64,000 nt of DNA from Dehalococcoidia bacterium (GCA_965203975.1 CBDBDT010000001.1:438880-502879); one strand, 5' to 3'; shown: positions 5,346 to 61,214, counted from the first letter of the stretch. Notes: a model not told the origin generated them from the sequence alone. Program-made: numbers and translations.

Positions 5346-7148
5346 ATGGCCAACCATTGGTTAAGGAACTCCACGGCAATCGCACTCACCCCTGGAATCC
5401 TGATTCTCCTCTTGGCGGCAGTAGCCTGCGGGTCCGCCGCCGCACCGGCGGATACTACGGAACCCGCTGTTGCGACACCCGCCCCTGCTGCTGCGGAATC
5501 CGCCCCGGCCGATGCCGCCCCCAGCGCTCCCACTGCGGTACCGAAAGCGGCCGTAGCGCTGGATACCCCTGAGACAGAAGTTAACCCCGGAAAGGCAACG
5601 TTCATGGTCCCTGACTGGGGTAACGAAAGGTTCGACTATCTCCTAGCCACCGGCCCGGTCCACCAGTATGGCCGAGTGTTGCACTCCTTCATGGTGGCAA
5701 CCAACGAGGATTTGGAACTGATCCCGGGCTTGGCTACAGCGTGGGAGATTTCAGACGACGGTCTCACTTGGACCTTCACCGTCAGGGAAGGCGTCAAGTT
5801 CCATGACGGCACGGAAATGACCCCCGAAGACGTCCTCTGGAGTTGGCGGCATTACTTTAGCCCCGGTGTTGAGGAAATCTCGGTGGGTTCAGTCGCCATC
5901 GCCCTTTCTCGTATCCACGACAAGATAGAGATGGCGGGGCCCAACCAGGTAAGTCTGACCACCACAATCCCCGACTCCAGCTACGCCGGTTACCACATGT
6001 TCGAGGGAGGGCCTCTTATCTACAGCGTGATTCCCGCGCGGGACAGCGATAACCTGTGGGACCAAGCGGAGGCCGAAGCCTACCAGGAGAACCCTATCGG
6101 TACGGGGTTCATGAAGGTGGTCAGGTTCGTCCCTTCCGAAGTAATCGAGTTCGAGCGGTTCGACGACTTCTACTTCCAGCCGGCCAACGGCTTCGACGAA
6201 GACCGCAGGGTCAAGTTTGCCTCGTTGGAAGTACGCCAGATTCCCGAGGAATCGACCCGGGTCGCGGCCCTGAGGGCCGGGGATGCCGACCTGGCCCCTG
6301 TGAGCATTCGGGCCAGGGAGCAGTTGGAAGCTGGCGGCGGGCGCTTGGTGTTCGGCCCGGAAGGTGTCTACATGCGTCCCAAGATGTTCGGTTGCTGGGC
6401 TGAAAACGACTATCCGTGCAGCGACAAGCGCGTCCGCCAGGCCCTGGCCTACGCCATCGACAAGGAGTTGATGCGGGACCGGCTCTTTGGAGGAAGCGAG
6501 GTCTTCCAGGTCAAGGGTTGGGCTCACGTCACCCCCAGCGCCATGGCTTACAGTCCCGATTTGGCCCCGTTCCCCTTTGACCCCGATAAGGCCCGGGCAT
6601 TGCTGGCAGAGGCGGGGTACAAGACTCCAGACAATCCCGACGGCAAGGATTTCGGAACATTCGTCGTAAACACCTGGGTGTCCACCGCCATGCCTTTCCT
6701 GCCTGAATCAGCGCAGCTGGCTGCCGAAAACTGGAAGCGCGAACTGGGCATCGAGACCGAGGTCAGGGTGGGGGATGAGACCGCGTTAAAGAAGGCCCGC
6801 AAAACCGGGGAACTTGACGGGCAGATCCTGTGGCGGGAGAACGAAGCCCGGTGGGATGGATCGGGTATTACCCGTGTGGTCTACGGAGAGCCCGAGAGGG
6901 TGGATCGTCCTCACAACAACCCCGAGATTTTCAACTTGGTGCTCGACGCTTTGGCGATCGTAGACCCAGACGAGCGGGCCGGGGTTTGGAACGCGGTCTA
7001 CAAACGGCTCCAGGATGAGCAGTACGAGCTCGCTGTTGGGTACGTCAATATCCCTTGGGGTGTCGGTCCCAGGATCGCGACCTACGAGCCCTATCCCATG
7101 GCTTTTTACCCATCAGCCCATCACAAGATTACCTTGCAAGAACCATGA
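5346..7148 (+). CDS. ABC transporter substrate-binding lipoprotein, family 5 (DppA/OppA-like), SBP1
   Basis: The start MANHWLRNSTA has a GGGAGG RBS. It has a lipobox LAAVAC|GS, a Pro/Ala-rich linker and an SBP_bac_5-like body (GTGFMKVVRFVPSEVIEFERFDDFYF). Confidence 0.9.
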   Translation: MANHWLRNSTAIALTPGILILLLAAVACGSAAAPADTTEPAVATPAPAAAESAPADAAPSAPTAVPKAAVALDTPETEVNPGKATFMVPDWGNERFDYLLATGPVHQYGRVLHSFMVATNEDLELIPGLATAWEISDDGLTWTFTVREGVKFHDGTEMTPEDVLWSWRHYFSPGVEEISVGSVAIALSRIHDKIEMAGPNQVSLTTTIPDSSYAGYHMFEGGPLIYSVIPARDSDNLWDQAEAEAYQENPIGTGFMKVVRFVPSEVIEFERFDDFYFQPANGFDEDRRVKFASLEVRQIPEESTRVAALRAGDADLAPVSIRAREQLEAGGGRLVFGPEGVYMRPKMFGCWAENDYPCSDKRVRQALAYAIDKELMRDRLFGGSEVFQVKGWAHVTPSAMAYSPDLAPFPFDPDKARALLAEAGYKTPDNPDGKDFGTFVVNTWVSTAMPFLPESAQLAAENWKRELGIETEVRVGDETALKKARKTGELDGQILWRENEARWDGSGITRVVYGEPERVDRPHNNPEIFNLVLDALAIVDPDERAGVWNAVYKRLQDEQYELAVGYVNIPWGVGPRIATYEPYPMAFYPSAHHKITLQEP

Positions 7149-7234: not shown

Positions 7235-9067
7235 ATGGCTACCCATTGGTTCAAGAATTCCACGGCAATCGCACTTACCCTGGGAACTCTTCTCCTCCTT
7301 TTGGCAGTGGTGGGTTGCGGCTCTGCCGCCGCACCGGCGGATACTGGGGAACCCGCTGTGGCGGCGCCCGCCCCCGCTGCTGCGGAATCTGCTCCTGCCG
7401 CCGCGGCCCCGGCCGCTCCTACCGCTGTGCCGGAAGTCGCGCAGCAACCAGGCGATGAAATGGTGGAGGTCCACCCGGGCAACGTTACCTGGATGATGGC
7501 CGCCTGGGGCGATGAGCAGTTTGACAAGGTCTACAGCGAGGGCGCCAGCAACAGCTACGGGCGGATCTTCCAGGCGTTCCTCCTGGAAACCAACGAGAAG
7601 ACAGAGATCATTCCGGGCATGGCCAGCGAGTGGGGATATTCCAGCGACGGCCTAAACTGGACCGTTACCCTGAGAGACGGGGTCAAGTTCCATGATGGGA
7701 CCGACGTTACGGTGGAGGACCTAGTCTGGTCCCTCAACCACGGTCATGGGCCGGAGAGTTTCAACTACACCTACTCCGGCTCCATAGCATCTTTTTCCAA
7801 GGAGCAGACCAAACCGGTCGAGCAGACCGGGCCAAACGAGGCAACCGTTTACTTCAAGACCATTCAGACCGGCTTCCCGGTGCTCCTGATGGCTGCTGGA
7901 CCCGCCTGGGGTTCGATGATGCCCGCACGGCCTCCGGTACCCGGGCAGGAGTTCATCACAGTGGACGCCGCCCAGGAAGCGGCATACCAGAAGAACCCCA
8001 TCGCTCCCGGACCCATGAAAATCGTCAACTTCGTCCCGTCCGAGGTGGTCGAGTTCGAGCGCTTTGACGACTACTATTTCCAGCCCAAGAACGGCCTCTA
8101 CGAAGACCGAAGGGTGAACTTCGAGACGCTGGACCTCAGGCTGGTGCCCGAGGAAGCAACCCGGGTGGCTGCCCTGAGGGCGGGGGACGCTGATATCGCC
8201 CCGGTGAGTCTGCGGGCCCGGAACCAGGTGGAACGGGGCGGCGGCCGCATAGTCTGGGCCGGTGAAGGCGGCTATTTCCGCATCATGCTGATGGGCTGCT
8301 GGTCTGGCGGAGAGCGGGAGGGGATGGTGAGCTACCCCTGCGAGGACAAGCGGGTGCGCCATGCCCTGGCTTACGCCATCGATAAGTCTCAAATTCAGAA
8401 ACTCTTCGGGGGGCCGGAAGCGCTGGAGGTGGAGCGCGGAGGCTGGAACGTCGTAACACCCAGCACCATTGGCTGGAGCCCCGACATAAAGCCAGTGGAA
8501 TTCGACCCGGACAAGGCCCGGGCGCTCCTGGCGGAAGCGGGTTACAGGACCCCGGACAACCCCAACGGCAAGGACTTCGGGCCGCTGATTATCAACACTT
8601 GGGTGTCAGCGCTGATGGTCTTCCTCCCCGAGTCGGCCCAGCTGGCCGCCGAGATGTGGCAGAGGGAGTTGGGCATAGATACCGAGGTGGTGGTCGGGGA
8701 GGAAGTTGCGGTAAAACGGGAGAGGTCGGCGGGCAACCTGGATGGCCAGGTGATCTGGAGGGACAACGAGACCCGGGTGGATGCCACCCAGATCATCGGA
8801 ACAACCTATGGGCGCCGGGACTACAGGGCCCGTTTCCACAATAGAGAGGACCTGTTCAAGCTGACTGAGGAAACCGTAGCGGTTTTCGATGATGATGAGC
8901 GGCCAGCGGCGCTGAATGCGTGGTACCGGCGGCTGCACGAAGAGAAGTACCAGATTGGCATCGGCACCGTAAACATCCCGTGGGCCCTGGGGCCGGATGT
9001 GGCCGACTGGCAGCCGTATCCGGTGGCCTTCTTCCCCAGCAGCCTCCATACGCTGAAGCTGAAGTAA
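7235..9067 (+). CDS. ABC transporter substrate-binding lipoprotein, family 5, SBP2 (tandem paralog of SBP1)
   Basis: It has MATHWFKNSTA, a lipobox LAVVGC|GS, a Pro/Ala linker and an SBP_bac_5-like body. Its leader and signal peptide are nearly identical to those of SBP1. Confidence 0.9.
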   Translation: MATHWFKNSTAIALTLGTLLLLLAVVGCGSAAAPADTGEPAVAAPAPAAAESAPAAAAPAAPTAVPEVAQQPGDEMVEVHPGNVTWMMAAWGDEQFDKVYSEGASNSYGRIFQAFLLETNEKTEIIPGMASEWGYSSDGLNWTVTLRDGVKFHDGTDVTVEDLVWSLNHGHGPESFNYTYSGSIASFSKEQTKPVEQTGPNEATVYFKTIQTGFPVLLMAAGPAWGSMMPARPPVPGQEFITVDAAQEAAYQKNPIAPGPMKIVNFVPSEVVEFERFDDYYFQPKNGLYEDRRVNFETLDLRLVPEEATRVAALRAGDADIAPVSLRARNQVERGGGRIVWAGEGGYFRIMLMGCWSGGEREGMVSYPCEDKRVRHALAYAIDKSQIQKLFGGPEALEVERGGWNVVTPSTIGWSPDIKPVEFDPDKARALLAEAGYRTPDNPNGKDFGPLIINTWVSALMVFLPESAQLAAEMWQRELGIDTEVVVGEEVAVKRERSAGNLDGQVIWRDNETRVDATQIIGTTYGRRDYRARFHNREDLFKLTEETVAVFDDDERPAALNAWYRRLHEEKYQIGIGTVNIPWALGPDVADWQPYPVAFFPSSLHTLKLK

Positions 9068-9109
9068 CGGGACAAACGGTCAAGGGCCTTTCTCGGCCCG
9101 ACGCACAAG

Positions 9110-9138
9110 GCCCCAGCCCGGAGGGTCCGGGCTGGGGC
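9110..9138 (+). promoter_or_regulatory. Intercistronic 13-bp perfect hairpin between SBP2 and the permease gene
   Basis: The stem gccccagcccgga/tccgggctggggc encloses a ggg loop, and a tgttttc tract lies about 10 nt downstream. It could be a partial terminator or an mRNA stabiliser. Confidence 0.5.
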
Positions 9139-9170
9139 ATCAGTGATTGTTTTCGCTTCGGGGATAAGCT

Positions 9171-10088
9171 ATGCAGCGATACATATTCATCAGGATAGGA
9201 CAGGCGGCGATCACATTGGTGATCCTGAGCCTGGCGGTGTTTCTGAGCGTGCACCTGACCGGGGACCCCGCGCTGTACCTGCTGGGACCGGAGGCCACGG
9301 AGGCGGACTACGAGCAGATGAAGAAGAACATGGGGCTGGACCGGCCCCTGCCGGTGCAGTACGCCAGCTTCCTGGGCAACGTGGTGCAGGCGGACTTCGG
9401 GATGTCCCACATTCGCGGGGTGCCGGCCCGGGACATCCTGCTGCAGCGGCTGCCGGCCACGCTGCAGCTGGCGGGAGTGGCCTTCATCCTGACCATAATA
9501 GTGGGGATTCCCCTGGGGATTCTGTCGGCCATCAAGCGGGACTCCATCTTCGACCAGATCGGCAAGTTCTTCGCGGTGGTGGGCATCGCGGCGCCCAGCT
9601 TCTGGATCGCCATCATGCTGATCCTCTTGTTCGGGGCCATTCTGGGGTGGCTGCCGACCTACGGGCGGGGCGGGATCGAGCACTTCATCCTGCCGGCCTT
9701 CGTGCTGTCTTGGCACAGCATGGCTGGGGTGCTGCGGCTGGCCCGGTCCAGCATGCTGGAGGTGATGGACAGCGAGTACGTCAAGTTCGCCCGGATCAAG
9801 GGATTGTCGGAGCGGATGGTCATCTTCAAGCACGCCATGAAGAACTCGGTGATCCCGGTGCTGACCTTCTCCGGGCTGACCCTGGCGGGTCTGCTGAACG
9901 GGTCGGTGGCGATTGAGGTGGTGTTCGCGTGGCCTGGGATTGGGCGGCTGATGCTGGAGGGGATCAAGAGCCGGGACTTCCCGGTGGTGCAGGCCACGGT
10001 GCTGGCGGCTGGGTTCTTCTACATTGCGACGGCGCTGATCGTCGACATCACCTACGCCTACGTCAACCCCCGGATCAGGTACGATTAG
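9171..10088 (+). CDS. ABC transporter permease (DppB/OppB-like)
   Basis: 305 aa and hydrophobic, with the N-terminus MQRYIFIRIGQAAITLVILSLAVF and the C-terminus YAYVNPRIRYD typical of DppB-type permeases. Confidence 0.9.
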   Translation: MQRYIFIRIGQAAITLVILSLAVFLSVHLTGDPALYLLGPEATEADYEQMKKNMGLDRPLPVQYASFLGNVVQADFGMSHIRGVPARDILLQRLPATLQLAGVAFILTIIVGIPLGILSAIKRDSIFDQIGKFFAVVGIAAPSFWIAIMLILLFGAILGWLPTYGRGGIEHFILPAFVLSWHSMAGVLRLARSSMLEVMDSEYVKFARIKGLSERMVIFKHAMKNSVIPVLTFSGLTLAGLLNGSVAIEVVFAWPGIGRLMLEGIKSRDFPVVQATVLAAGFFYIATALIVDITYAYVNPRIRYD

Positions 10089-10128
10089 CAGGTACGACTA
10101 ACCGGCACGACTAAAGAGGAGGGTACCC

Positions 10129-11016
10129 GTGGCTAGTACAGCTACACTGGCGACCGGCAGAGGCAGAATCGAACAGATACTGGCGCTCCCCAGAAGGGCG
10201 AGACAGGCGCGGCTGCCCTGGTTCCCGCTGGCGATCATGACGGTGCTGCTGGTGTGCGCCCTGTTTGCGCCGCTGCTGGCCCCCCATGACCCCACCGAGA
10301 TCAAGATGCTGGACTCGCACCTGGCGCCTGGGGACAATCCGGCCTACCCGCTGGGCACGGACATCATGGGCCGGGACATGCTGAGCCGGCTGATCTACGG
10401 GGCCAGGACGGCCCTGTTCATCAGCCTGATCGCCTTGGGGACCGGAGCGTTTGTGGGGACCGTGCTGGGGCTGGTGGCGGGCTTCAAGACGGGCTGGGTG
10501 GACCACCTGATCATGCGGACGTCGGACGCGGCGCTGGGGTTTCCGACGATCCTGGTGGCGATGATCATCGTGACGATACTGGGAGCTGGGATCGAGAACA
10601 TCATCCTGGCGGTGGCGCTGACGGTGTGGGCGCGGTTTGCGCGGATGATCCGTGGTGACGTGCTGGCGATCAAGGAGCTGGACTTCGTGACCTTTGCCCG
10701 GATAGCGGGACTGTCGATGCCGGTGATCATCATCCGGCACATCTTCCCCAACACGGTGAACACGCTGATGGTGATCACCAGCCTGCAGATCGGGCAGGTG
10801 ATCCTGCTGGAGGCGTCATTGAGCTTCCTGGGGCTGGGGCTGCCGCCCGGGGACCCGGCCTGGGGGATCATGGTGGCGGAGGGGAGGGACGTGATCCTGG
10901 ACGTGTGGTGGCTGGCCCTGTTCCCGGGCCTGGCCATCACCGTGGTGGTGCTGGCCTTCAACTTCTTCGGGGACTGGATGCGCGACACCCTGGACCCCAA
11001 ACTGCGGCGGGTCTAG
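10129..11016 (+). CDS. ABC transporter permease (DppC/OppC-like)
   Basis: It has a GTG start with a GAGGAGG RBS, PLGTDIMGRDMLSRLIYGAR, and a C-terminal FGDWMRDTLDPKLR. Confidence 0.9.
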   Translation: MASTATLATGRGRIEQILALPRRARQARLPWFPLAIMTVLLVCALFAPLLAPHDPTEIKMLDSHLAPGDNPAYPLGTDIMGRDMLSRLIYGARTALFISLIALGTGAFVGTVLGLVAGFKTGWVDHLIMRTSDAALGFPTILVAMIIVTILGAGIENIILAVALTVWARFARMIRGDVLAIKELDFVTFARIAGLSMPVIIIRHIFPNTVNTLMVITSLQIGQVILLEASLSFLGLGLPPGDPAWGIMVAEGRDVILDVWWLALFPGLAITVVVLAFNFFGDWMRDTLDPKLRRV

Positions 11017-11037
11017 GACAGGGTCAATAGCAACGAA

Positions 11038-11071
11038 ATCTGGCGGCATGGAGCCATCCATGCCGCCAGAT
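11038..11071. terminator. Hairpin between convergent genes (14-bp perfect stem)
   Basis: The stem atctggcggcatgg/ccatgccgccagat has a 6-nt loop and is followed by TAATCTTTCC. It sits between the permease (+) and the LLM oxidoreductase (-). Confidence 0.55.
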
Positions 11072-11148
11072 TAATCTTTCCCCGATCCGCCGCCAAGCGG
11101 GGATTCACACCGGGTACAGAAATCCCTCAGCGCTGGCGGCGGATTCCC

Positions 11149-33068: not shown

Positions 33069-33213
33069 AACTTCACTATATGCTTTCCCAACGCGCTTTT
33101 ATCGACGCATATGAAGGCTCAGTTATTCCTAAACGGTATTCCGGCCCATGTGGACCAATAGCGTTTGTTTCGGAATAGTACCACCGCACAGGTTCATAGA
33201 TGGAGGTAAGAAG

Positions 33214-34836
33214 ATGATCAGGGAAACTGGCGTACTTAGCCCGCTGCCCGTTAAGGAGACACTCCAGGAACTCCAGGTTCGCCATGTCGACAATCTGGGC
33301 GGGAAAACCGTTGGGTTCCTGTCCGCATTCTGGCCACCGTACGAACTCTTGGTTGAAGGGCTCACTGAACTTCTCCGGGGAAAATTCGAGGTGGCGGCAA
33401 CTCCCCGGGCCGACTACACTGGCCGCCCTCCATTGAAGGGGGTATGGGCTGAGAGGAAGGAGTGGGCCGACCAACTGGACGCCGCCGTCGTTGGAATCGG
33501 GGCTTGAGGAGGCTGCGTCGCCTGGAGTGTCCAGGCCACCAATGACCTTCACCGGCGGGGGATTCCATCGGTGTGCGTCGTCACGGAAAGTTGGCAGGAG
33601 CAGGCCTCCAACCTGGCTGAGAACCTGGGCATGGCCCGGGGCCAAATGGTGGTATTGCCGAAGGACTTTTCCTTCTGGCCAGACGAGGCTATCCGGGCAT
33701 ACGCCCCGGAAGTGGTGGGGGATGTGGTCCAGGGACTCACTCGCCGGGAGCAGCGGGCGGCAAGCCTCATATCCAGTCACCCGGACGAGGCCGGAACCCT
33801 CGAAGATTCCGAGTTGGCGCAGGAACTGTTCCTGGAACGGCAATGGACCGATGGGTTGCCCATCGTTCCCCCTACTGGAGACAGGGTTCGGGAGATGATG
33901 GTGGCCGTCAATCGCGACCCCCAAGATGCGGTGGCATCGCTGGCCCCTCAATGGAGGCCCGCTACCATAGAGAAAATAGCGGTCAACGCCGTGATGGCGG
34001 GATGCCGACCGGAGTATTTTCCGGTGGTGGTGGCCGCGGTGGAGGCTATTGCGGATCCGGCTTTCGACCTGATCGCTCACGCCACCTGCACGTCCTCCAG
34101 CACGCCCATTTTCATCGTCAATGGACCGGTACGGGAAGCGATTAACCTGGAAAGTGGGTACGCCCTGTTCGGGTCCGCAGCCCATGCCAACGCCACTATT
34201 AGCCGTGCCCTGCGCTTGATTCGCCGGAACATCGGCGGACAGATCCCGGGGCTTACCGACATGACCACCTTTGGTTTCCCGGGAGGCGGCCAGAACCTCC
34301 TGATAGCTGAGAATGAGGAGCTCAACCCGTGGGAACCCCTCCACGTTCAGCGTGGGTTTCGGCCTGAGGACTCCACGGTCACCGTGGCGACGGTGGTGAC
34401 TTTCCAGAATATGTGCCACAACCGGACTACTCTGCCGGAGTCCCAGTTGGCCGTCATCGCCTCCGGGATCGCCCAGATGGGGTATAAGGACTACCAGAAC
34501 AGTCCGTTGGACGTGGGCAATGTGCTGGTGATGATCGCGCCTGCCTACGCCCAATGGTTCAACGAGGCCGGGTTCACCCGCCAGGACATCCAGGCCTTCC
34601 TCCGGGATAAATCCCGGGTGCCCCTTGAAGAATTGCCTCCGGAGTTGATCCCAAATGCCGAGGCGGGAGGCCGCATCGACGGTCGCTGGGTTTACTCCGT
34701 GGCAAGACCAGAGCAGATCGTGGTTTTCGTGGCCGGTGGGTACAACGGCTTCAGGGTTGGGACCGAGCCCGCGATCGTCATGCACACCAACCACCAGAGA
34801 TGGGAGTTCGTGACCAAGAAAATCGCCTGGGGCTGA
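33214..34836 (+). CDS. Candidate selenoprotein A: UGSC-like N-terminal module (motif U-G-G-C, TGA at 33505-33507) fused to an unassigned ~400-aa domain
   Basis: ORFs 33148-33507 and 33571-34836 share one frame and are separated only by a TGA. Read-through gives AAVVGIGA-U-GGCVAWSVQATNDLHRRGIPSV, which aligns with paralog B. The start MIRETG has a GGAGGT RBS. Confidence 0.7.
33517..33539 (+). promoter_or_regulatory. Candidate bacterial SECIS-like stem-loop for gene A
   Basis: The core stem gcctgg/ccaggc has a 5-nt loop AGUGU starting 21 nt after the U of UGA. Two further pairs follow beyond a C-C mismatch. Confidence 0.4.
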
Positions 34837-34862: not shown

Positions 34863-35784
34863 GAAACTATCTCAAAACCCTGAGTTGCCGTTGCCGCCGG
34901 TACCAGATTAGGGCGCAGGCCAGTTGGATCAGGCCTATGTAGTTGGATGCCTTCTTGTCGTACCGGACCAGGATCGCCCGGCACTTGGATAGCCAAGCCA
35001 GGGTGCGTTCCACCACCCACCGTCGGGCCGGATGGCGTTTCACTCCTGCGGTGTCCAGCTTCTCCTCCCCTATCCGCCGGATGTGCCCCCGGTATCCGTG
35101 AGCCGCCACCGCCTCGCGGCCCGTTGGATTGTCGTATCCCTTGTCCAGGCACAGATGCTCAATCGCGGCATCAGGACGCTCCACCACTATGCCATTCAAG
35201 GTCATGTCCAGCAGCTTGGTGTCGTGAACATTGGCTCCGGCTACCACCAAGCTCAATGGCCCTCCACCCTGGTCGACCAGGATACTCCGCTTGCTGCCTG
35301 CTTTGCCCCGGTCCGTGGGATTGCGGCCTATTGAATCCCCCCAAAACGGGCCTTGCCCATGGCGCAATCGGCAGCCTGCCATTCCCAATCCACACCACCC
35401 AGTTCCTCGCACTCCGAGACCAACTCCGCCCAGATGCGCTCCAGCACACCCAACTCCACCCAGCGCTGGAAAGTGCGGTGAATGGTGCTGTCGTCCCCCA
35501 GTTCCCGGGGCAGGCGGTTCCAGTGGCAGCCGGTGCGCATGCGGAATATGATGCCGTCCAGGATTCGCCTGGGATGAACCCGCTTCCGTCCCGTAGCCTT
35601 GGGAGGGTCCATTTCCAGAATCACCGGGTGAATCTGCTCCCACAGATCGTCCGGAACCTCCCAAATCGTTGCCAAAGTGTCGCTCTTTCCCGTCATCATC
35701 CACCGCCTCACCAGATCCCCCTTCATCCTAACCGAACCGGATTATCCCTCTCCCTTTCGACTCCTACCGTTTTGAGATAGTTTC
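34863..35784 (-). mobile_element. IS5-family insertion sequence (IS427/IS1031-like, 922 bp)
   Basis: It has perfect 16-bp terminal inverted repeats, gaaactatctcaaaac (34863-34878) and gttttgagatagtttc (35769-35784). These are flanked by a TTA direct repeat (34860-34862 and 35785-35787). Confidence 0.85.
34867..35699 (-). CDS. IS5-family transposase OrfAB, produced by a -1 frameshift at T4G6 (35337-35346)
   Basis: OrfA reads ...RMRTGCHWNRLPRELG...AMGKARFGGIQ*. The -1 frame continues as GDSIGRNPTDRGKAGSKRSILVDQGGGPL...DKGYD... (DDE domain). The fused reading RFGGDSIGRNPTDRGK matches the family pattern as I remember it. Confidence 0.8.
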
Positions 35785-50858: not shown

Positions 50859-51148
50859 ACACGTTCAACGTCAGTGCGTTAAGTCTCCCGTGCGGGCACA
50901 CTCGACTCAAGAGTGGTCCGGGGATCGAAAGGGGGACGACTGCCACTTCACGCCCGTCGTCCCTGAGCGGGGCCTATTGATGGCAATCGTGGAACCGAAG
51001 TGTTAAGATTCTGCCCCGCAGAGAGTCACTGCATTGAATTCGCAACTTCTTTGGCGGTTTACGCAGTTCCGCGGATTCCCCGTCGTGGTGCGGCGGGACC
51101 GCCAGGACAGGATAGGCAACCACGGGTTACATCTACGCCCTGAGAGGG

Positions 51149-51901
51149 GTGTTCCTCCAGCAGCTGAAATACGGGATGGACCTGAGCACGGTTATCTTTT
51201 CCCTGGTTACCCACGTTCCCCTGGCCGTTGTTCTCGCGTGGATCGCCGCCCGGGGTTCCGGCACCGTTCCCGCGGATTACCTCTTCATCGGTATCTTCCT
51301 GATGTCGGTGTGGAACTGGATCGCCATCCGGATGGGCTGGTCCCTCACCAGCGAACTCATCGGCGGCACCTTCGACTACACGACGACGTCCCGGACCCCG
51401 CTGGGGATCGTCATCTTCGGGAGGGCGGTGGCCTTGACGGTCGCCAGCATACCCTCGGGCATAGCCCCCATGCTGATGATCCTGTGGGTGTCGGGCCAGG
51501 TGATCCAGGTGGCCGACCCCCTGGCCGTCGTAGCGGCCCTGGTGATGGGGGTGTTCAACGTCATCTCGGTCGCCTTCGTCTTCGCGCCCTTCTTCCTGCT
51601 GGTCCGGGGTCGGGAGGGCCTGTTCAACCTGATCCGTCCCCTGGGAGTGGTGTTCTGCGGGTTCCTGTACCCGGTGACGTTCCTTGCTCCCGGGCTGGAG
51701 GTGGCGGCCCGGTTCCTGCCCGTGTCCTGGGCCATGGACGCGGTGCTGCTGGCCATCGAGTCGGAGGGTGCAACCCTGCAGGCGGTCCAGTACCTGGGGA
51801 TCGCCTTCGTCATCTCCTGCGCCTACCTGGCGGTCTCCCAGCTGTTGCTCCAGCGGGTTGAGTACCGGGTACGGGTGGCCGGCGACCTGGGACGGTTCTA
51901 G
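51149..51901 (+). CDS. ABC-2 type transporter permease
   Basis: It has a GTG start and a hydrophobic six-helix-like profile, and it sits upstream of a DrrA-like ATPase. The start is uncertain. Confidence 0.7.
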   Translation: MFLQQLKYGMDLSTVIFSLVTHVPLAVVLAWIAARGSGTVPADYLFIGIFLMSVWNWIAIRMGWSLTSELIGGTFDYTTTSRTPLGIVIFGRAVALTVASIPSGIAPMLMILWVSGQVIQVADPLAVVAALVMGVFNVISVAFVFAPFFLLVRGREGLFNLIRPLGVVFCGFLYPVTFLAPGLEVAARFLPVSWAMDAVLLAIESEGATLQAVQYLGIAFVISCAYLAVSQLLLQRVEYRVRVAGDLGRF

Positions 51902-51914
51902 TGGGGGAGGCCCG

Positions 51915-52700
51915 GTGACCAACTTCTTGATCCAGTCCTACCTGTCCTACCGGGCGCTGTTCTTCTGGCTGAACTGGCCGGCCTACCTGGGCAACGTGTT
52001 CGTCGTCCCGGTGCTGTACATCGCCATGCTCATGCTGACCGGCAGGTTCGCGGACAGCCACCTGGACTCGGACTTCTATGTGAAGGGAATGGCCGCCTAC
52101 TCGCTGCCCTTCATCATCATCTGGGGCGCCACCCAGTGCTTCTACTATGAGCGGGTGCTGGGAACCCTGGCCGTGGTCTTCGGGTCCTCGGGCAACCGGT
52201 GGCTCATCTACTGGAGCAAGGGCTGTCTCCACTATCCCAACGGAGTGCTGGCAGTGGTCACCAGCATCGTCTTTTCCTGGATATTCATTGGCTTGGAGCT
52301 GTCCGGTGCCAATTGGGTGACCCTAACGGCTTCGATACTGGTGCTGGGGCTCTCCTGCACCGCCTTCGCCTTGTTTGTGAGCGTCTTCACCATAGTGATA
52401 CGGGACTGGCTGATCATCAGCGCCACCGGGTCGGGCCTGCTCATCGTCTTCACCGGAGTGGTGATTCCGACGGAGAACCTGCCCTTCTTCCTGGGGAACA
52501 TCGGGGACATTCTTCCCCTGACCCACGGCGTCGCCGTGTTCCGTGAGGCCTTCCTGGGGAGCGACGTGATATCCCAGGAGCAGGACCTGATCTGGGAGCT
52601 GGCCGTAGGTGCGGCCTACGGCGTTGCGGGGTATCTCCTGTACCGGTTCATCGAGGCCGACGCCAAGCGGCGGGGGGCCTACGAGACATCGAACCTGTGA
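51915..52700 (+). CDS. ABC-2 type transporter permease (second subunit)
   Basis: The GTG start has a GGGGGAGG RBS. It is hydrophobic. The ORF-track start at 51684 overlaps the previous gene and was rejected. Confidence 0.7.
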   Translation: MTNFLIQSYLSYRALFFWLNWPAYLGNVFVVPVLYIAMLMLTGRFADSHLDSDFYVKGMAAYSLPFIIIWGATQCFYYERVLGTLAVVFGSSGNRWLIYWSKGCLHYPNGVLAVVTSIVFSWIFIGLELSGANWVTLTASILVLGLSCTAFALFVSVFTIVIRDWLIISATGSGLLIVFTGVVIPTENLPFFLGNIGDILPLTHGVAVFREAFLGSDVISQEQDLIWELAVGAAYGVAGYLLYRFIEADAKRRGAYETSNL

Positions 52701-52731
52701 CCGGGAAGAAACGGGGAGCGGAGAGCGGAAA

Positions 52732-53700
52732 GTGGACGCAGGCGAAAAAGTAGTCGAATGCTCGGACCTGGGAAGGGTCTACTCCACCCGGGGGATCACA
52801 GGGCGCCGGCGGGAGTTCGTGGCCCTCAAGGACCTGAACCTGGCGATAACCCGGGGGAGCGTCTTCGGGCTGCTGGGGCCCAACGGGGCGGGCAAGACCA
52901 CGACGGTACGTATCCTGTCCACGCTGCTCACCCCCAGCAGCGGGAGCGCCCGGGTCATGGGCTACGATGTCCAGAGCCAGGCCAGGCAGGTGCGGAGGAA
53001 CATCGGGTTCATCCTGGGCGGGGACCGGGGCCTCTATGGCCGGATAACCGGTGAGCAGAACCTGCGGTACTTCGGCGCCCTGAACCACCTGAACCCCCGG
53101 GAATGCCGCCAGAGGTCGGCCCAACTCCTGGAGCGGGTCGGGCTGGCCGAACACGCCAGGACGCCGGTGGAGAACTACTCCAGGGGAATGAAGCAGAGGC
53201 TCCACATCGCCCGTGGGCTCCTCATGGACCCGCCGGTCCTGTTCCTGGACGAACCGACCATCGGGCTGGACCCGATCGGGGCCCAGGAGCTCCGTAACTA
53301 CGTGCCGGAGCTGGCGGCCGAGGGCAAGACCATCCTGCTGACCACCCACTACATGGCCGAAGCCGACATGCTCTGTGACACCATCGCCATCATCAACCGG
53401 GGAGAGCTGGCCGCCATGGGCACCCCCGACGACATCAAGCGCCGGTTCAGCCGGGTTGGGATCGTCGAGGTCCTGGTGAGGAACGCCAGGGGAGGGTTGC
53501 TGGAGGAAGTCTCGGCCATCCAGGGTGTCGAGCACGTGGAGTCCTCCGCCGAAAACGCCTTCCAGAAGCTGACCCTCTCGGTTGCCGCCGGTTTCGACGT
53601 CAGGGACCGGGCAACGGAGGCCGTTGGGCCGGACAACATCGAGAGCATCGTCATGCGGGATCCCACCCTGGAAGAGGCCTACATCAGCATCCTCCGGTAG
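52732..53700 (+). CDS. ABC transporter ATP-binding protein (DrrA/ABC-2 exporter type)
   Basis: It has Walker A GPNGAGKTT, signature YSRGMKQR and Walker B VLFLDEPTIGLD. I chose the GTG start at 52732. Confidence 0.9.
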   Translation: MDAGEKVVECSDLGRVYSTRGITGRRREFVALKDLNLAITRGSVFGLLGPNGAGKTTTVRILSTLLTPSSGSARVMGYDVQSQARQVRRNIGFILGGDRGLYGRITGEQNLRYFGALNHLNPRECRQRSAQLLERVGLAEHARTPVENYSRGMKQRLHIARGLLMDPPVLFLDEPTIGLDPIGAQELRNYVPELAAEGKTILLTTHYMAEADMLCDTIAIINRGELAAMGTPDDIKRRFSRVGIVEVLVRNARGGLLEEVSAIQGVEHVESSAENAFQKLTLSVAAGFDVRDRATEAVGPDNIESIVMRDPTLEEAYISILR

Positions 53701-53712
53701 CTGCCCGGCCTT

Positions 53713-54465
53713 TCATCCGGGGCTGTTGAACAGCCCGGCGATCAGCCAGTCCGATACCCGGCCGGAGAGGTCCGGCAGCACTCGTCGGTTCAGGACCAGG
53801 CCCCAGTGAGATGCCCCCGCCGCCTCCATGTAGTCCGCGGGCAGCGCCATCCCATCGTAGGCCGACCGGGGCCAGTTCCGGTCAGCGCTCCCGGTGACCA
53901 CCAGCAGTGGACAGGGCAACGAGGGAATCACCACGCCGGCCCGGCGCTCGTCCCTGGCGGTCCTGGACTCCGGAGACGCCGATCCCAGGGCAACCAACCG
54001 CTCCTGGGTATCCAGGTCAGGCATCTCCGGCTGATCGCTGGGGTCATCGCTGGTGATGCCGTACTCTTCCGGCCCGAAGGTCCCGCGACGGATTTCCACT
54101 CCGGGGTCCTGCTCCGTTGCCGGAGTGCTGGGGGCCAGGGCCACGCAGGCCCGGGCCAACCCCCTGGCGGCGAACATCAGGGCCACCAGACCGCCCATGC
54201 TCCAGCCCATCACCACCGGGGGTTCCGATAATTCCGAGGCTGCCTCGGCCACGTCATCCGCGTAGTCCATCATGGAAGCCCCATCCACCGAGCCCGGGCT
54301 CAGGCCATGGCCCCGCAGATCGACAGCGTGGCTGCTCCAGCCCAGGCTGGCCAGGGACTCCTGCCAATACTTCCAGACTGAAGCGGAGTTGGCTGCCCCG
54401 TGAACGAGAAGGACCGGGGGGAGGCCGGACGGGCTGGAAGGGTGAACTGTCCTCACATAGATCAT
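53713..54465 (-). CDS. Alpha/beta hydrolase
   Basis: It has VLLVHGAANS and the nucleophile elbow GWSMGG, and is 250 aa. Confidence 0.8.
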   Translation of the reverse strand: MIYVRTVHPSSPSGLPPVLLVHGAANSASVWKYWQESLASLGWSSHAVDLRGHGLSPGSVDGASMMDYADDVAEAASELSEPPVVMGWSMGGLVALMFAARGLARACVALAPSTPATEQDPGVEIRRGTFGPEEYGITSDDPSDQPEMPDLDTQERLVALGSASPESRTARDERRAGVVIPSLPCPLLVVTGSADRNWPRSAYDGMALPADYMEAAGASHWGLVLNRRVLPDLSGRVSDWLIAGLFNSPG

Positions 54466-57202: not shown

Positions 57203-57243
57203 TGACCTTGATAGCCGGGGTTGTCCGCCCTATGATTGGCGGT

Positions 57244-58644
57244 ATGCTCCTCACCATCTCCACGACGCATCAGCCAGCCACCGACCTGGGATTCCTGCTG
57301 CACAAGAACCCGGGCCGGTTGCAGTCGTTCCGGCTGCCCTTCGGGCGGGCTGACGTCTTCTACCCCGAAGCGGACGCCGACCGCTGCACCGCAGCTCTGC
57401 TCCTGGATATTGATCCGGTGGGGTTGGTGCGGCCGAAGGCCGGAGGGGCCAATGCCGGCGGCTGGCCGGAACAGTACGTCAATGACCGCCCCTACGTCGC
57501 GTCCTCCCATCTGAGCGTGGCGATTGCCACCGTATTCCGCAGCGCCCTGGCGGGCAATAGCCGGGACCGCCCTGAGTTGGCGGAGTCGGCTATACCCTTG
57601 GAGGCCCGGATCCCAGCGGTCCCGTCCGAGGAGGGAGCGGACCTGATCTGGAGCCTGTTCGAACCTCTCGGGTACTCGGTCGATATCCAAGGGCAGCCGC
57701 TGGACGGGCGATTTCCCGAATGGGGCGACAGCCCCTACTTCAGCGTGAGCCTCGCGTCAGAATGCCGGCTCCGAGACCTGCTGGCCCACCTCTACGTGCT
57801 TCTGCCGGTCCTGGACGACGACAAGCATTACTGGGTCGGTGACCAAGAGGTGGACAAGCTGCTGCGCTTCGGCGAGGGGTGGTTGGGCAGCCATCCCCAG
57901 CGGGACTTGATCTCGCGCCGCTACCTGAAGCACCAGCGCGGTCTGGTGCACCAGGCCTTGGCCCAACTGCTGGATGCCGGCCAGTCCGATCCTGGCGCCA
58001 CCGCGGCGAGGCAGGAGCAGGAAGAGGAGCGGCTGGAAGCCCCGCTGCGGCTGGGGGAGCAGCGGATACAGTCCGTGCTGACCACGCTCCGGGAGTTGGG
58101 GGCAACCAGGGTGCTGGACCTGGGTTGCGGCGAGGGAAGGCTAATGGGCGAATTGCTCCGGGAACCCGGGATTGGTGCGGTGACCGGCCTGGACGTTTCC
58201 TACCGGGCGTTGGAAACGGCCCACCGACGCCTCCGCCTCGATACCCTGCCCGACCGGCAGCGGGAGCGCATCACCCTGCTGCACGGTTCCCTGACCTACC
58301 GGGACCAGCGGCTGTCCGGCTACGACGCAGCGGTGGCCATGGAGGTGATCGAACACATCGACGCCCCGCGCCTGGACGCCTTCGAGGAGGTGGTGTTCGG
58401 GTCCGCCAGGCCCGGCGCGGTCCTGATCACGACGCCCAACGCGGAGTACAACACCCTTTTCTCCGGCCTTCCCGCCGGGACATTTCGGCACCGGGACCAC
58501 CGGTTCGAGTGGACGCGGGAGCAGTTCCAGATCTGGGCGAGGCTGGCAGCGGAACGCCGGAAGTACGAGGTGCGGTTCGAGGACATCGGACCCGAGGACC
58601 CCGTCCACGGCGCACCGACCCAGATGGGGGTCTTCACCCGATGA
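57244..58644 (+). CDS. hen1: 3'-terminal RNA ribose 2'-O-methyltransferase Hen1 (bacterial type)
   Basis: The N-terminus MLLTISTTHQPATDLGFLLHKNPGR is typical of bacterial Hen1. The C-terminal MTase has VLDLGCGEGRL and AMEVIEHI. The stop overlaps the pnkp start (ATGA). Confidence 0.85.
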   Translation: MLLTISTTHQPATDLGFLLHKNPGRLQSFRLPFGRADVFYPEADADRCTAALLLDIDPVGLVRPKAGGANAGGWPEQYVNDRPYVASSHLSVAIATVFRSALAGNSRDRPELAESAIPLEARIPAVPSEEGADLIWSLFEPLGYSVDIQGQPLDGRFPEWGDSPYFSVSLASECRLRDLLAHLYVLLPVLDDDKHYWVGDQEVDKLLRFGEGWLGSHPQRDLISRRYLKHQRGLVHQALAQLLDAGQSDPGATAARQEQEEERLEAPLRLGEQRIQSVLTTLRELGATRVLDLGCGEGRLMGELLREPGIGAVTGLDVSYRALETAHRRLRLDTLPDRQRERITLLHGSLTYRDQRLSGYDAAVAMEVIEHIDAPRLDAFEEVVFGSARPGAVLITTPNAEYNTLFSGLPAGTFRHRDHRFEWTREQFQIWARLAAERRKYEVRFEDIGPEDPVHGAPTQMGVFTR

Positions 58645-61214
58645 AGATTACCATCCCTGAACTGTGCCTGGTGGCGATCATCGGGCCCAGCGGGTCGGGG
58701 AAGTCCTCCTTCGCCGCCAGGCATTTCAGGCCCACCGAGGTGGTGTCCTCGGACGCCTGCCGGGCGATGGTGGCGGATGACGCCGCCGACCAGGCCGCGA
58801 CCCCCGACGCCTTTGCCCTGCTCAACTTCATCGCGGCCACCCGGCTGCGGGCCGGACGCCTCACCGTCATCGACGCCACCAGCGTCCAGCCCCAGGCCCG
58901 CAAGCCTCTGGTGGCGCTGGCTAGGGAACACGACTGCTTGCCGGTGGCCGTCGTGTTGAATATGCCCGAAGCGCTGTGCCTGTCCCGCAACCGGGAACGC
59001 CCCGACCGGGCGTTTGGCCCCCAGGTGGTGCGCCGGCAAGCGGAACAGCTCCGGCGGTCGCTGCGCGGGCTGAAACGGGAGGGCTTCCGGCACATCTTCG
59101 TGCTCAACTCCCCCGAGGAGGTGGAGGCGGTCACCGTGGAGCGCGTTCCGCTGTGGGTGAACCTCCGACACGAGCACGGGCCCTTCGACATCATAGGCGA
59201 CGTGCACGGGTGCTACGACGAGCTGGTCATTCTTCTCCGACGCCTCGGGTACAGACTGGAAACCCGGGTCGGCGCCTACGGGGAAGCTGGCTTTTCGGCG
59301 ATCCATCCCGAGGGCCGGAAAGCCGTGTTCGTCGGCGACCTGGTGGACCGGGGCCCGGGCGTGGCAGAGGTGCTGAAGCTGGTCATGGGCATGGTGTCCG
59401 AGGGTACCGCACTGTGTGTCGCTGGCAACCACGAGTCCAAGCTATCCCGCAAGCTCCAGGGCCGGAATGTGCAGGTGTCCCACGGACTGGCGGAATCGCT
59501 GGCCCAACTGGAACCGGAGTCCCCGGCTTTCCGGCAGCAGGTCGCTGCGTTCCTCGACGGATTGATCAGCCACTACGTTCTTGACGATGGCGGGCTAGTG
59601 GTGGCCCACGCGGGGATGAAGGAGGAATACCAAGGGCGGGCGTCCGCGCGGGTGCGGGATTTCTGCCTCTATGGCGAGACCACCGGGGAGACCGACGAGT
59701 TCGGCCTCCCGGTCCGCTACAACTGAGCCGCCGGCTACCGGGGCCGAGCGATGGTGGTCTACGGCCACACCCCGGTGGTGGAGCCCGTCTGGCTCAACAA
59801 CACCATCAACGTGGATACGGGCTGTGTGTTCGGCGGCAGGCTGACCGCGCTCCGCTACCCCGAAAAGGAGCTGGTATCAGTACCGGCGGTGCGGGTCCAC
59901 TATGAGCCGGCGAAACCGCTGGCCGAACCCTCCCAGCAGGAGGAACCCTCTGGGCCCAGCGAGACCCGCGCGGCAAACCTTCTTGACATTGACGACGTGC
60001 TGGGGAAACGCATTGTGGCAACCCGGCTGAGGGGCAACATCACGATCCGGGAAGAGAACGCGGCGGCGGCACTGGAGGTGATGAGCCGTTTCGCCCTGGA
60101 CCCACGCTGGCTGGTGTACCTGCCGCCCACCATCTCTCCCTGCGACAGTTCCAGGCTCCCCGGCATGCTGGAACACCCAGCGGAGGTGTTCGCCTATTTC
60201 CGCAACAACGGCGTGTCCAGCGTGGTCTGCGAGGAGAAGCACATGGGGTCGCGGGCCATCGTCGTTCTGGGTAGGGACGCCGCGGCTATCGAGCGGCGGT
60301 TCGGCATCACCGACGAGGGCACTGGCGCCTGCTACACCCGGACGGGAAGAGGGTTTTTCGAAGACCGCTCCCTCGAGGGGGAGTTCCTGGAGAGTGCCGG
60401 CTGGGCGGTCGGGGAAGCCGGTCTCTGGGAGGAGCTGGGGACCGATTGGATGGTCCTCGACTGTGAACTCATGCCGTGGTCCGTGAAGGCGCAGGACCTG
60501 CTCCGCGAACAGTACGCGGCCGTGGGCGCCGCGGCCCGGACCAGTCTGACGGCCGCGGAGGCGCTTCTCCGTCAGGCGTTGGAACGGGGCATTGACGCCG
60601 GCGAGAGCCTCGCCGGCGTCGAAGAGCGGCTTCGTCTGTCCCAACTCTACAGCGACGCCTATGCACGTTACTGCTGGCCGGTGACGTCGCTGGCGGACCT
60701 CCGGCTGGCGCCCTTCCACCTGCTGACCAGCGAGGGCCAGGTGCATACCGACAAGACCCATCCCTGGCACATGGGCATGGCCGAACGCCTAGGTCAGGCC
60801 GATCCCGGGTTGTTCCGGGCAACCAGGCATCGGACGGTGGACCTGGACTCCCCGGACGAGCTGGAAGCGATCTGCTGGTGGGAGGAGCTGACCGGCAACG
60901 GCGGGGAGGGGATGGTGGTGAAGCCGACGGACTTCATCACCACCGGGAAGCGGGGCCTGGTGCAGCCCGCCATGAAGTGCCGGGGGGCCGAATACCTGCG
61001 AATCATCTACGGGCCGGAGTACACCCTGCCGGAGAACATGGACCGGCTGCGCCATCGGGGGCTCTCCACCAAGCGGTCGCTGGCGCTTCGTGAGTTCGCC
61101 CTGGGCGTGGAGGGACTGCAGCGTTTTGTCGGGGGAGAGCCTCTCTACCGAGTGCATGAGTGCGCCTTCGCCGTGCTGGCCCTGGAAAGCGAGCCGGTTG
61201 ACCCCAGGCTCTAG
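58641..61214 (+). pseudogene. pnkp: Polynucleotide kinase-phosphatase/ligase Pnkp, interrupted by one in-frame TGA (59724-59726)
   Basis: It has the kinase P-loop GPSGSGKSS, the phosphatase motifs GDVHGC, GDLVDRGP, GNHE and VYGHTP, and the ligase motif CEEKHMGSR. ORFs 57879-59726 and 59751-61214 are in the same frame, reading ...[23 protein letters not shown]. Confidence 0.8.

Follow-up and report, generated by a model that had tools for sequence, protein, structure and literature searches.

A 64,000-nucleotide stretch of DNA from a Dehalococcoidia bacterium (GCA_965203975.1, CBDBDT010000001.1:438880-502879; referred to here as the window, with positions counted from its first nucleotide) contains a pnkp gene, which encodes the kinase-phosphatase-ligase of an RNA-repair system and whose reading frame is broken by a single in-frame TGA codon. 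The question raised by this locus is whether that stop is a genuine mutation, a mistake in the assembled sequence, or a codon that the organism bypasses, decodes, or uses to divide the protein in two. Our favored answer is that the pnkp allele is real, null or strongly hypomorphic, and of very recent evolutionary origin, a reading that we hold to be probable though well short of certain, and we favor it over an error in the consensus, which we regard as a substantial but clearly less likely explanation. Under both of these readings, the lesion is an ordinary nonsense mutation or a one-base error in a well-known family and involves no new coding trick.

The pnkp gene occupies positions 58641-61214 on the plus strand and comprises 857 codons followed by a terminal TAG, and its translation contains one internal stop, the TGA at 59724-59726 (context CGC TAC AAC TGA GCC GCC GGC). 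The open reading frames (ORFs) on either side, 57879-59726 and 59751-61214, lie in one common frame. A first-pass annotation of the window had claimed that this TGA splits pnkp inside the phosphatase domain and is the only interruption in about 857 codons, and the frame, coordinates, and translation all bear this out. Codons 1-361 (58641-59723, plus strand) encode the polynucleotide 5'-kinase and the N-terminal two-thirds of the 2',3'-phosphatase, and codons 363-857 with the TAG (59727-61214, plus strand) encode the last phosphatase strands, a linker, and the ligase/adenylyltransferase domain. Pfam places AAA_33 (kinase) and Metallophos before the stop and PNKP_ligase (E = 4.6e-173) after it. 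When the two parts are fused with an X at the stop, the product scores 1383.8 bits against NCBIfam TIGR04075, the equivalog for bacterial Pnkp (cut-off 750), in an alignment that runs end to end (residues 1-857 against profile positions 1-851 of 851). The solved domains of the Clostridium thermocellum enzyme (CthPnkp) are also strongly matched, namely the kinase (4gp6), the phosphatase (4j6o), and the ligase (3ty8/4drf), with the 3' part matching PDB 4drf at E = 5e-161 and 3ty8 at E = 7.8e-146. The public record (NCBI/ENA) holds two coding sequences (CDSs), P0123 (361 aa) and P0121 (487 aa), which are the window ORFs verbatim and lie on one 1,352,577-bp contig. With TGA at codon 362, the three modules do not stand in one uninterrupted polypeptide, and the window pnkp, as written, is a disrupted member of TIGR04075, either a pseudogene or a hypomorph.

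Immediately upstream lies hen1 (57244-58644, plus strand; Pfam and NCBIfam assignments), which encodes a 3'-terminal RNA 2'-O-methyltransferase that is also the ligase-activating partner of Pnkp. The hen1 ORF opens with TTG at 57208 and ends with TGA at 58642-58644, and its start is likely the ATG at 57244 (MLLTIS...). Its stop and the pnkp start codon, ATG 58641, overlap as ATGA, which can be read directly from the sequence. The product matches Pfam Hen1_L (5.2e-110) together with methyltransferase domains, and it scores 684 bits against NCBIfam TIGR04074 (cut-off 340) over profile positions 1-462 of 462. Thus the overlap and the full-length TIGR04074 match support the earlier statement that hen1 is intact and translationally coupled to pnkp. 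Given an adjacent, co-oriented hen1 with these domains, and the same arrangement at the related loci L001 and L002, the locus qualifies as a canonical RNA-repair operon of the hen1-pnkp type. It shares with the Pnkp-Hen1 system of the C. thermocellum and Anabaena variabilis type (TIGR04075 plus TIGR04074) the order of hen1 then pnkp, the kinase-phosphatase-ligase order, collinear kinase and phosphatase numbering, all catalytic motifs, and full-length matches. It differs from that system in that its frame is broken at the Trp362 codon, so that no trifunctional protein is encoded as written, and in that its host is an uncultured member of the Dehalococcoidia (Chloroflexota).

Every catalytic motif of pnkp is intact on both sides of the stop, including the P-loop, the phosphatase residues, and the ligase lysine. 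The P-loop GPSGSGKS (residues 15-22) lies at 58683-58706. The phosphatase motifs that precede the stop are GDVHG (residues 186-190, 59196-59210), GDLVDRG (residues 232-238, 59334-59354), GNHE (residues 262-265, 59424-59435), and AHAG with His323 (residues 322-325, 59604-59615), and those that follow it are YGHT with His376 (residues 374-377, 59760-59771) and VDTG with Asp392 (residues 391-394, 59811-59822). The ligase lysine motif EKHMGS (residues 532-537) is found at 60234-60251. The residues known to be essential for phosphatase activity are Asp187, His189, Asp233, Arg237, Asn263, His264, His323, His376, and Asp392 (PMC3675462). The break falls within the metallophosphoesterase fold, between His323 and His376.

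The phosphatase aligns to 4j6o without gaps, and the TGA stands opposite the Trp of GLPVRYDWASDYRGKALVVYGH. At this site CthPnkp reads VRYDWASDYRG, its Trp occupying the TGA column, and because the residue numbering is collinear, that column corresponds to Trp362 of CthPnkp. Trp362 packs on Tyr341 at the base of the Pnkp-specific alpha6-loop-alpha7 insert (PMC3675462). Among the best 120 of more than 8000 database matches, all 120 have Trp at the stop column, and each is one undivided protein, with lengths of 853-879 aa and, in most cases, 857 aa. The first-pass annotation had proposed an aromatic residue here, probably Trp, in an RY.W motif, and both CthPnkp and the homologues agree. It had also allowed that homologues might end at this point and be followed by a separate ligase gene, which does not hold, given that all 120 are single proteins.

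These homologues bear as well on whether the locus could encode a functional split, in which a kinase fragment of 361 aa and a second fragment of 487 aa, begun at ATG 59751, work jointly or apart. The first ATG past the stop (59751-59753, plus strand; the M in GRAMVVYGH) is in frame, lies 24 nt downstream, and is a possible re-initiation codon as well as the start of P0121; moreover, individual constructs of the CthPnkp kinase, phosphatase, and ligase have yielded structures (PDB 4gp6, 4j6o, 3ty8, 4drf). A natural system with a separate ligase also exists, the three-protein Pnkp1-Rnl-Hen1 RNA repair complex of Capnocytophaga gingivalis (PMC4411300), in which healing and sealing reside on separate polypeptides encoded beside hen1, superficially like the two CDSs of the window. 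In that complex, however, the split falls between complete domains and the ligase is a distinct protein, Rnl, whereas the window is broken inside the phosphatase fold, away from any domain boundary, such that residues 362-370 would be lost and neither fragment would have a complete active site. The downstream part of the window gene is, unlike Rnl, a bona fide PNKP_ligase that in all homologues continues directly from the upstream part, and the structures of the complex (PDB 4xru/4xrp) match the window protein weakly (E about 3e-7). No homologue is split here among the 120 proteins and 82 other genome loci compared, the stretch before ATG 59751 resembles a Shine-Dalgarno sequence only weakly, the sister lineages have TGG, and there is no sign that a split is retained. 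A natural two-gene arrangement was therefore rejected as very unlikely, the break lying in the phosphatase fold and the homologues all being single proteins.

The proteins closest to that of the window are P0122 (96.3% identity, on the short-read scaffold L002) and P0001 (93.8%, at locus L001), the latter intact at 857 aa. The codon is TGG in both L001 and L002, as it is in the 86%-identical L003, and the 24 nt around the codon in L001 and L002 are otherwise the same as in the window. Given that all three relatives have TGG, in L001 and L002 within identical flanks, a single TGG>TGA transition, G>A at 59726, explains the stop. This is the origin that had been suggested as simplest before the relatives were compared, and their TGG codons in identical flanks support it.

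Whether the A at 59726 belongs to the organism or to the assembly is the point on which the favored reading depends, and one assembly of this strain bears on it. If the consensus is wrong, then the organism has TGG and a functional pnkp, and the A is a low-coverage long-read artefact. Several observations weigh in this direction and against a real allele. In a scan of JGI (Joint Genome Institute) metagenomes for population variants, the exact 24-mer, its variable base written as R, gave no match, and a degenerate pattern found three loci in the same metagenomes, all with TGG and none with TGA. The closest intact alleles, P0122 and P0001, indicate that pnkp is kept in sister lineages. The 1.35-Mb contig suggests a long-read metagenome assembly, in which isolated substitution errors occur, and the record name of a sister contig, 'ctg61163_7.90x_l', appears to encode just 7.9x coverage. 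Moreover, a difference of one base in flanks otherwise identical to those of relatives, with all pnkp motifs intact, no relaxed selection, and a full lack of decay, is exactly how an error would look. Finally, among assemblies whose isolates are named by universally unique identifiers (UUIDs), 2 of 12 loci have single nonsense codons in the operon; when the window is counted with them, the figures are 3/13 as against 4/70 elsewhere (Fisher p = 0.07).

An error of this kind should nevertheless be set beside the quality of the surrounding consensus. Approximately 13 kb within 45.4-61.9 kb of the window aligns to scaffold L002 at 95-97% identity with no frameshifts, and the SBP, methyltransferase, inositol-1-phosphate synthase, HAD hydrolase, MFS transporter, and hen1 genes are intact in both. 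The remainder of the window consists of long intact ORFs, with no further suspicious in-frame stop in the 64 kb, and no frameshift or broken gene is obvious across it. Errors in long reads are usually dominated by indels. Given this error profile and the lack of frameshifts, the consensus looks accurate. The spectrum of differences from L002 is symmetric (84 G>A and 75 A>G; 24 GGCC sites lost and 22 gained), without an asymmetric G>A excess, and no shared motif was found among the G>A contexts in this comparison. An excess of GC>AT changes was at first apparent in the window lineage (38:8, p = 0.003), but with L003 as a second outgroup the count is 19:5 as compared to 23:12 for L002 (p = 0.38), so that under strict polarization the skew of the window does not differ from that of L002. 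Since the spectrum is symmetric and the skew shrinks to that extent upon polarization, a systematic G>A assembly-error signature was rejected as evidence either way. Among the UUID-named loci, L010 carries a 2.6-kb insertion in pnkp besides its nonsense codon, which marks it as a true case of decay. On balance, we infer that base 59726 is real, and of the options that had been put forward at the outset, namely a fresh inactivation, a base-call error, or dependence on read-through, the first is favored and the last fares poorly.

If the allele is real, its age should be reflected in the pattern of substitutions. Polarized with L001 as the outgroup, codon changes in pnkp along the window lineage number 9 non-synonymous (the stop excluded) to 24 synonymous, as compared to 18:29 for L002 and 36:82 for L001. 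Divided at the stop, the ratio in the window lineage is 2:16 for the upstream codons and 7:8 for the downstream ones; L002 likewise has 6:16 before the stop position and 12:13 after. Relaxed selection past the stop was therefore rejected, since L002 displays the same difference, which is thus characteristic of the ligase domain. The window Pnkp has 10 residues that are unique among the 120 homologues, and intact homologues range from 0 to 11. A window-specific AGG>GGG change at 60351, codon 571, gives Arg571Gly in the ligase domain, at a position where the 120 closest homologues all have Arg and CthPnkp has His; this change is the sole hint of damage past the stop and is too little to claim decay. 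As far as can be judged from these substitutions, pnkp is without detectable relaxation of selection, and because the catalytic motifs are intact as well, the stop would be either very recent or not real, that is, a young lesion or an artefact.

Given that in-frame TGA codons are not always terminators, the window was screened for in-frame stops flanked on both sides by 70 or more codons free of stops, and the G+C signature at the three codon positions (GC1/GC2/GC3) was judged by eye. A two-sided coding signature was found only for the pnkp TGA and for two TGAs in UGSC-family genes. The first of these genes (33148-34836, plus strand) has its TGA at 33505-33507, in the N-terminal UGSC-family domain (...VVGIGA-U-GGCVAW..., motif U-G-G-C), with a 7-bp hairpin approximately 15 nt past the UGA; Pfam PF24696 matches the portion past the TGA, the NCBIfam model 'UGSC family (seleno)protein' spans it at 65 bits (cut-off 125), and the large C-terminal region has no Pfam match. 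The second, a paralogue on the minus strand (37707-35950), has its TGA at 37347-37345 (...VVGAAAD-U-GACTLW..., motif U-G-A-C) with an 8-bp hairpin approximately 14 nt past the UGA; the Pfam UGSC profile is split by the TGA, with positions 1-92 before and 100-171 after, and the NCBIfam score of 93 bits is below the cut-off of 125. Both TGAs are probably selenocysteine (Sec) codons, and with two likely selenoprotein genes of this family in the window, the organism probably has Sec machinery. Between the paralogues lies a DDE_Tnp_1 transposase ORF of an insertion sequence element (34867-35703, minus strand).

These two genes, with their hairpins and the probable Sec machinery, are what would favor a decoded UGA in pnkp, read as Trp or Gly under a reassigned code or as Sec. 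The remaining evidence leaves this explanation with next to no probability. On an ORF map of the window guided by GC3, TGA ends 17 of 42 ORFs, including hen1, which ends where its homologues in L001 and L002 do. With TGA a normal terminator and only three in-frame TGAs bearing a two-sided coding signal, two of which are explained as Sec, reassignment of the code is effectively refuted. No tRNA genes were found in the window, so no suppressor tRNA lies there. Sec replaces Cys in redox motifs. The pnkp column is a structural Trp, not Cys, in 120/120 homologues, and the sequence downstream of the stop is the same coding sequence as in the TGG relatives and folds no better than shuffled sequences; the Sec reading of the pnkp TGA was rejected on the basis of the Trp column and the lack of a significant fold after the stop. 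In-frame TGAs thus need case-by-case judgement, as one window holds two that are probably Sec codons and one that is a lesion.

A further possibility is that the UGA is leaky by design, having been selected to allow low, condition-dependent production of full-length Pnkp through programmed or regulated read-through. Among premature stops in E. coli reporters, TGA is the leakiest, with mostly Trp inserted at levels of under 1% to a few percent, and a G at +4, cold, and starvation each raise read-through (PMC11126739). The base following the pnkp TGA is likewise G. The pnkp stop is therefore like the leaky E. coli UGA alleles that are read by tRNA-Trp, in that a premature UGA is followed by G and the native Trp could be restored. 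It is unlike them in that no conserved context or structure accompanies it. Compared to shuffled sequences, no stimulatory structure was found in the 121 nt around the stop (z = -0.28) or in the 60 nt from the stop (z = -0.66), the window contains no Rfam families, and the closest relatives have TGG. We accordingly consider regulated read-through highly improbable, and nothing suggests selection for either read-through or re-initiation.

Lone nonsense codons in other pnkp genes might be thought to speak for such a mechanism, and they can be assessed from a survey of the operon in other genomes. At least 589 pnkp/hen1 loci were matched, 80 were retrieved, and the survey covered 82 species-representative genome loci besides the window. 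The operon is independently broken in 6 of the 82, two of them in Dehalococcoidia (L003 and L010); with the window included, approximately 8% (7/83) are broken, three in Dehalococcoidia. In pnkp, lone stops are found in L003 (7693-7695, Tyr565 TAC>TAG), in L032 from Verrucomicrobiales (1361-1363, Gly190 of GDVHG changed to TGA), and in L034 from Actinomycetota (6970-6972, Gln331 changed to TAG, with a hen1 frameshift as well). L010 has a stop in hen1 (5888-5890, Gln441 changed to TAG) and the 2.6-kb insertion near the 3' end of pnkp (8529-11126), and hen1 is frameshifted in L031 and L057. Because they have multiple lesions, L010 and L034 represent genuine decay. Apparent in-frame stops in hen1 of L013, L015, and L052 were rejected, as those alignments ran upstream of the true start codon.

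Counting the window, single stops occur in 4 of 83 pnkp genes and frameshifts in none, which would fit read-through, but the other stops lie at different codons, are TAG or TGA, and replace Tyr, Gly, or Gln, so that no site or mechanism is conserved. That pnkp-hen1 is a recurrent target of single nonsense mutations acting as reversible or leaky down-switches seems to us a slim prospect. There is just as little to commend the corresponding idea that selection has favored the window UGA, at its Trp codon, as a hypomorph in which tRNA-Trp read-through gives a little enzyme in a condition-dependent manner. Breakage in about 8% of the genomes sampled is consistent with an operon that is often gained and lost, and we read the stop as the beginning of the kind of gene loss that is seen repeatedly in this accessory hen1-pnkp operon.

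If the window carries the recent null or strongly hypomorphic allele that we favor, its consequences can be predicted from the domain layout. The G>A change at 59726 would have turned the invariant Trp362 codon TGG into TGA, and translation would end after residue 361. The truncated product would keep the 5'-kinase but would have an incomplete metallophosphoesterase fold, lacking metal ligand His376, Asp392, and the ligase domain. In the normal pathway, the 2',3'-cyclic phosphate is removed by the phosphatase, the 2'-OH is methylated by Hen1, and the break is sealed by the ligase, which the N-terminal domain of Hen1 activates. With His376, Asp392, and the ligase lost, it follows that this heal-methylate-seal pathway could not run. 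Hen1, being encoded upstream, should still be made, but it would be without its ligase partner, and repair of breaks with 2',3'-cyclic-phosphate and 5'-OH ends should fail.

Two leaks might leave residual function. Near-cognate tRNA-Trp(CCA) could misread the UGA, perhaps yielding 0.1% to a few percent of output, and because the lost residue was Trp, such misreading would rebuild exactly the wild-type Pnkp. Alternatively, re-initiation at ATG 59751 could yield a ligase-containing fragment; the sequence before this codon, ggggccgagcg, is weakly Shine-Dalgarno-like. For annotation, the 361-aa and 487-aa CDSs are best treated as a single disrupted pnkp, and the genome should be left out of any count of working Pnkp-Hen1 repair systems unless reads show TGG. 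The importance of the lesion beyond annotation is little.

The surroundings of the operon differ among related genomes. At L001 (12835-20648), pnkp is followed by an ORF with a Cas12f1-like TnpB domain, and the same region has two pairs of a resolvase and a 527-aa ORF flanking a hybrid histidine kinase; neither layout is present in the window, where the next gene after pnkp is an SBP_bac_5 gene on the minus strand. Near hen1-pnkp, approximately 3.5 kb of the window (about 50906-54455) is absent from L002, constituting a strain-level indel. The genes in this indel encode an ABC-2 permease (51684-52700), an ABC ATPase (52609-53700), and an alpha/beta hydrolase (53713-54465, minus strand).

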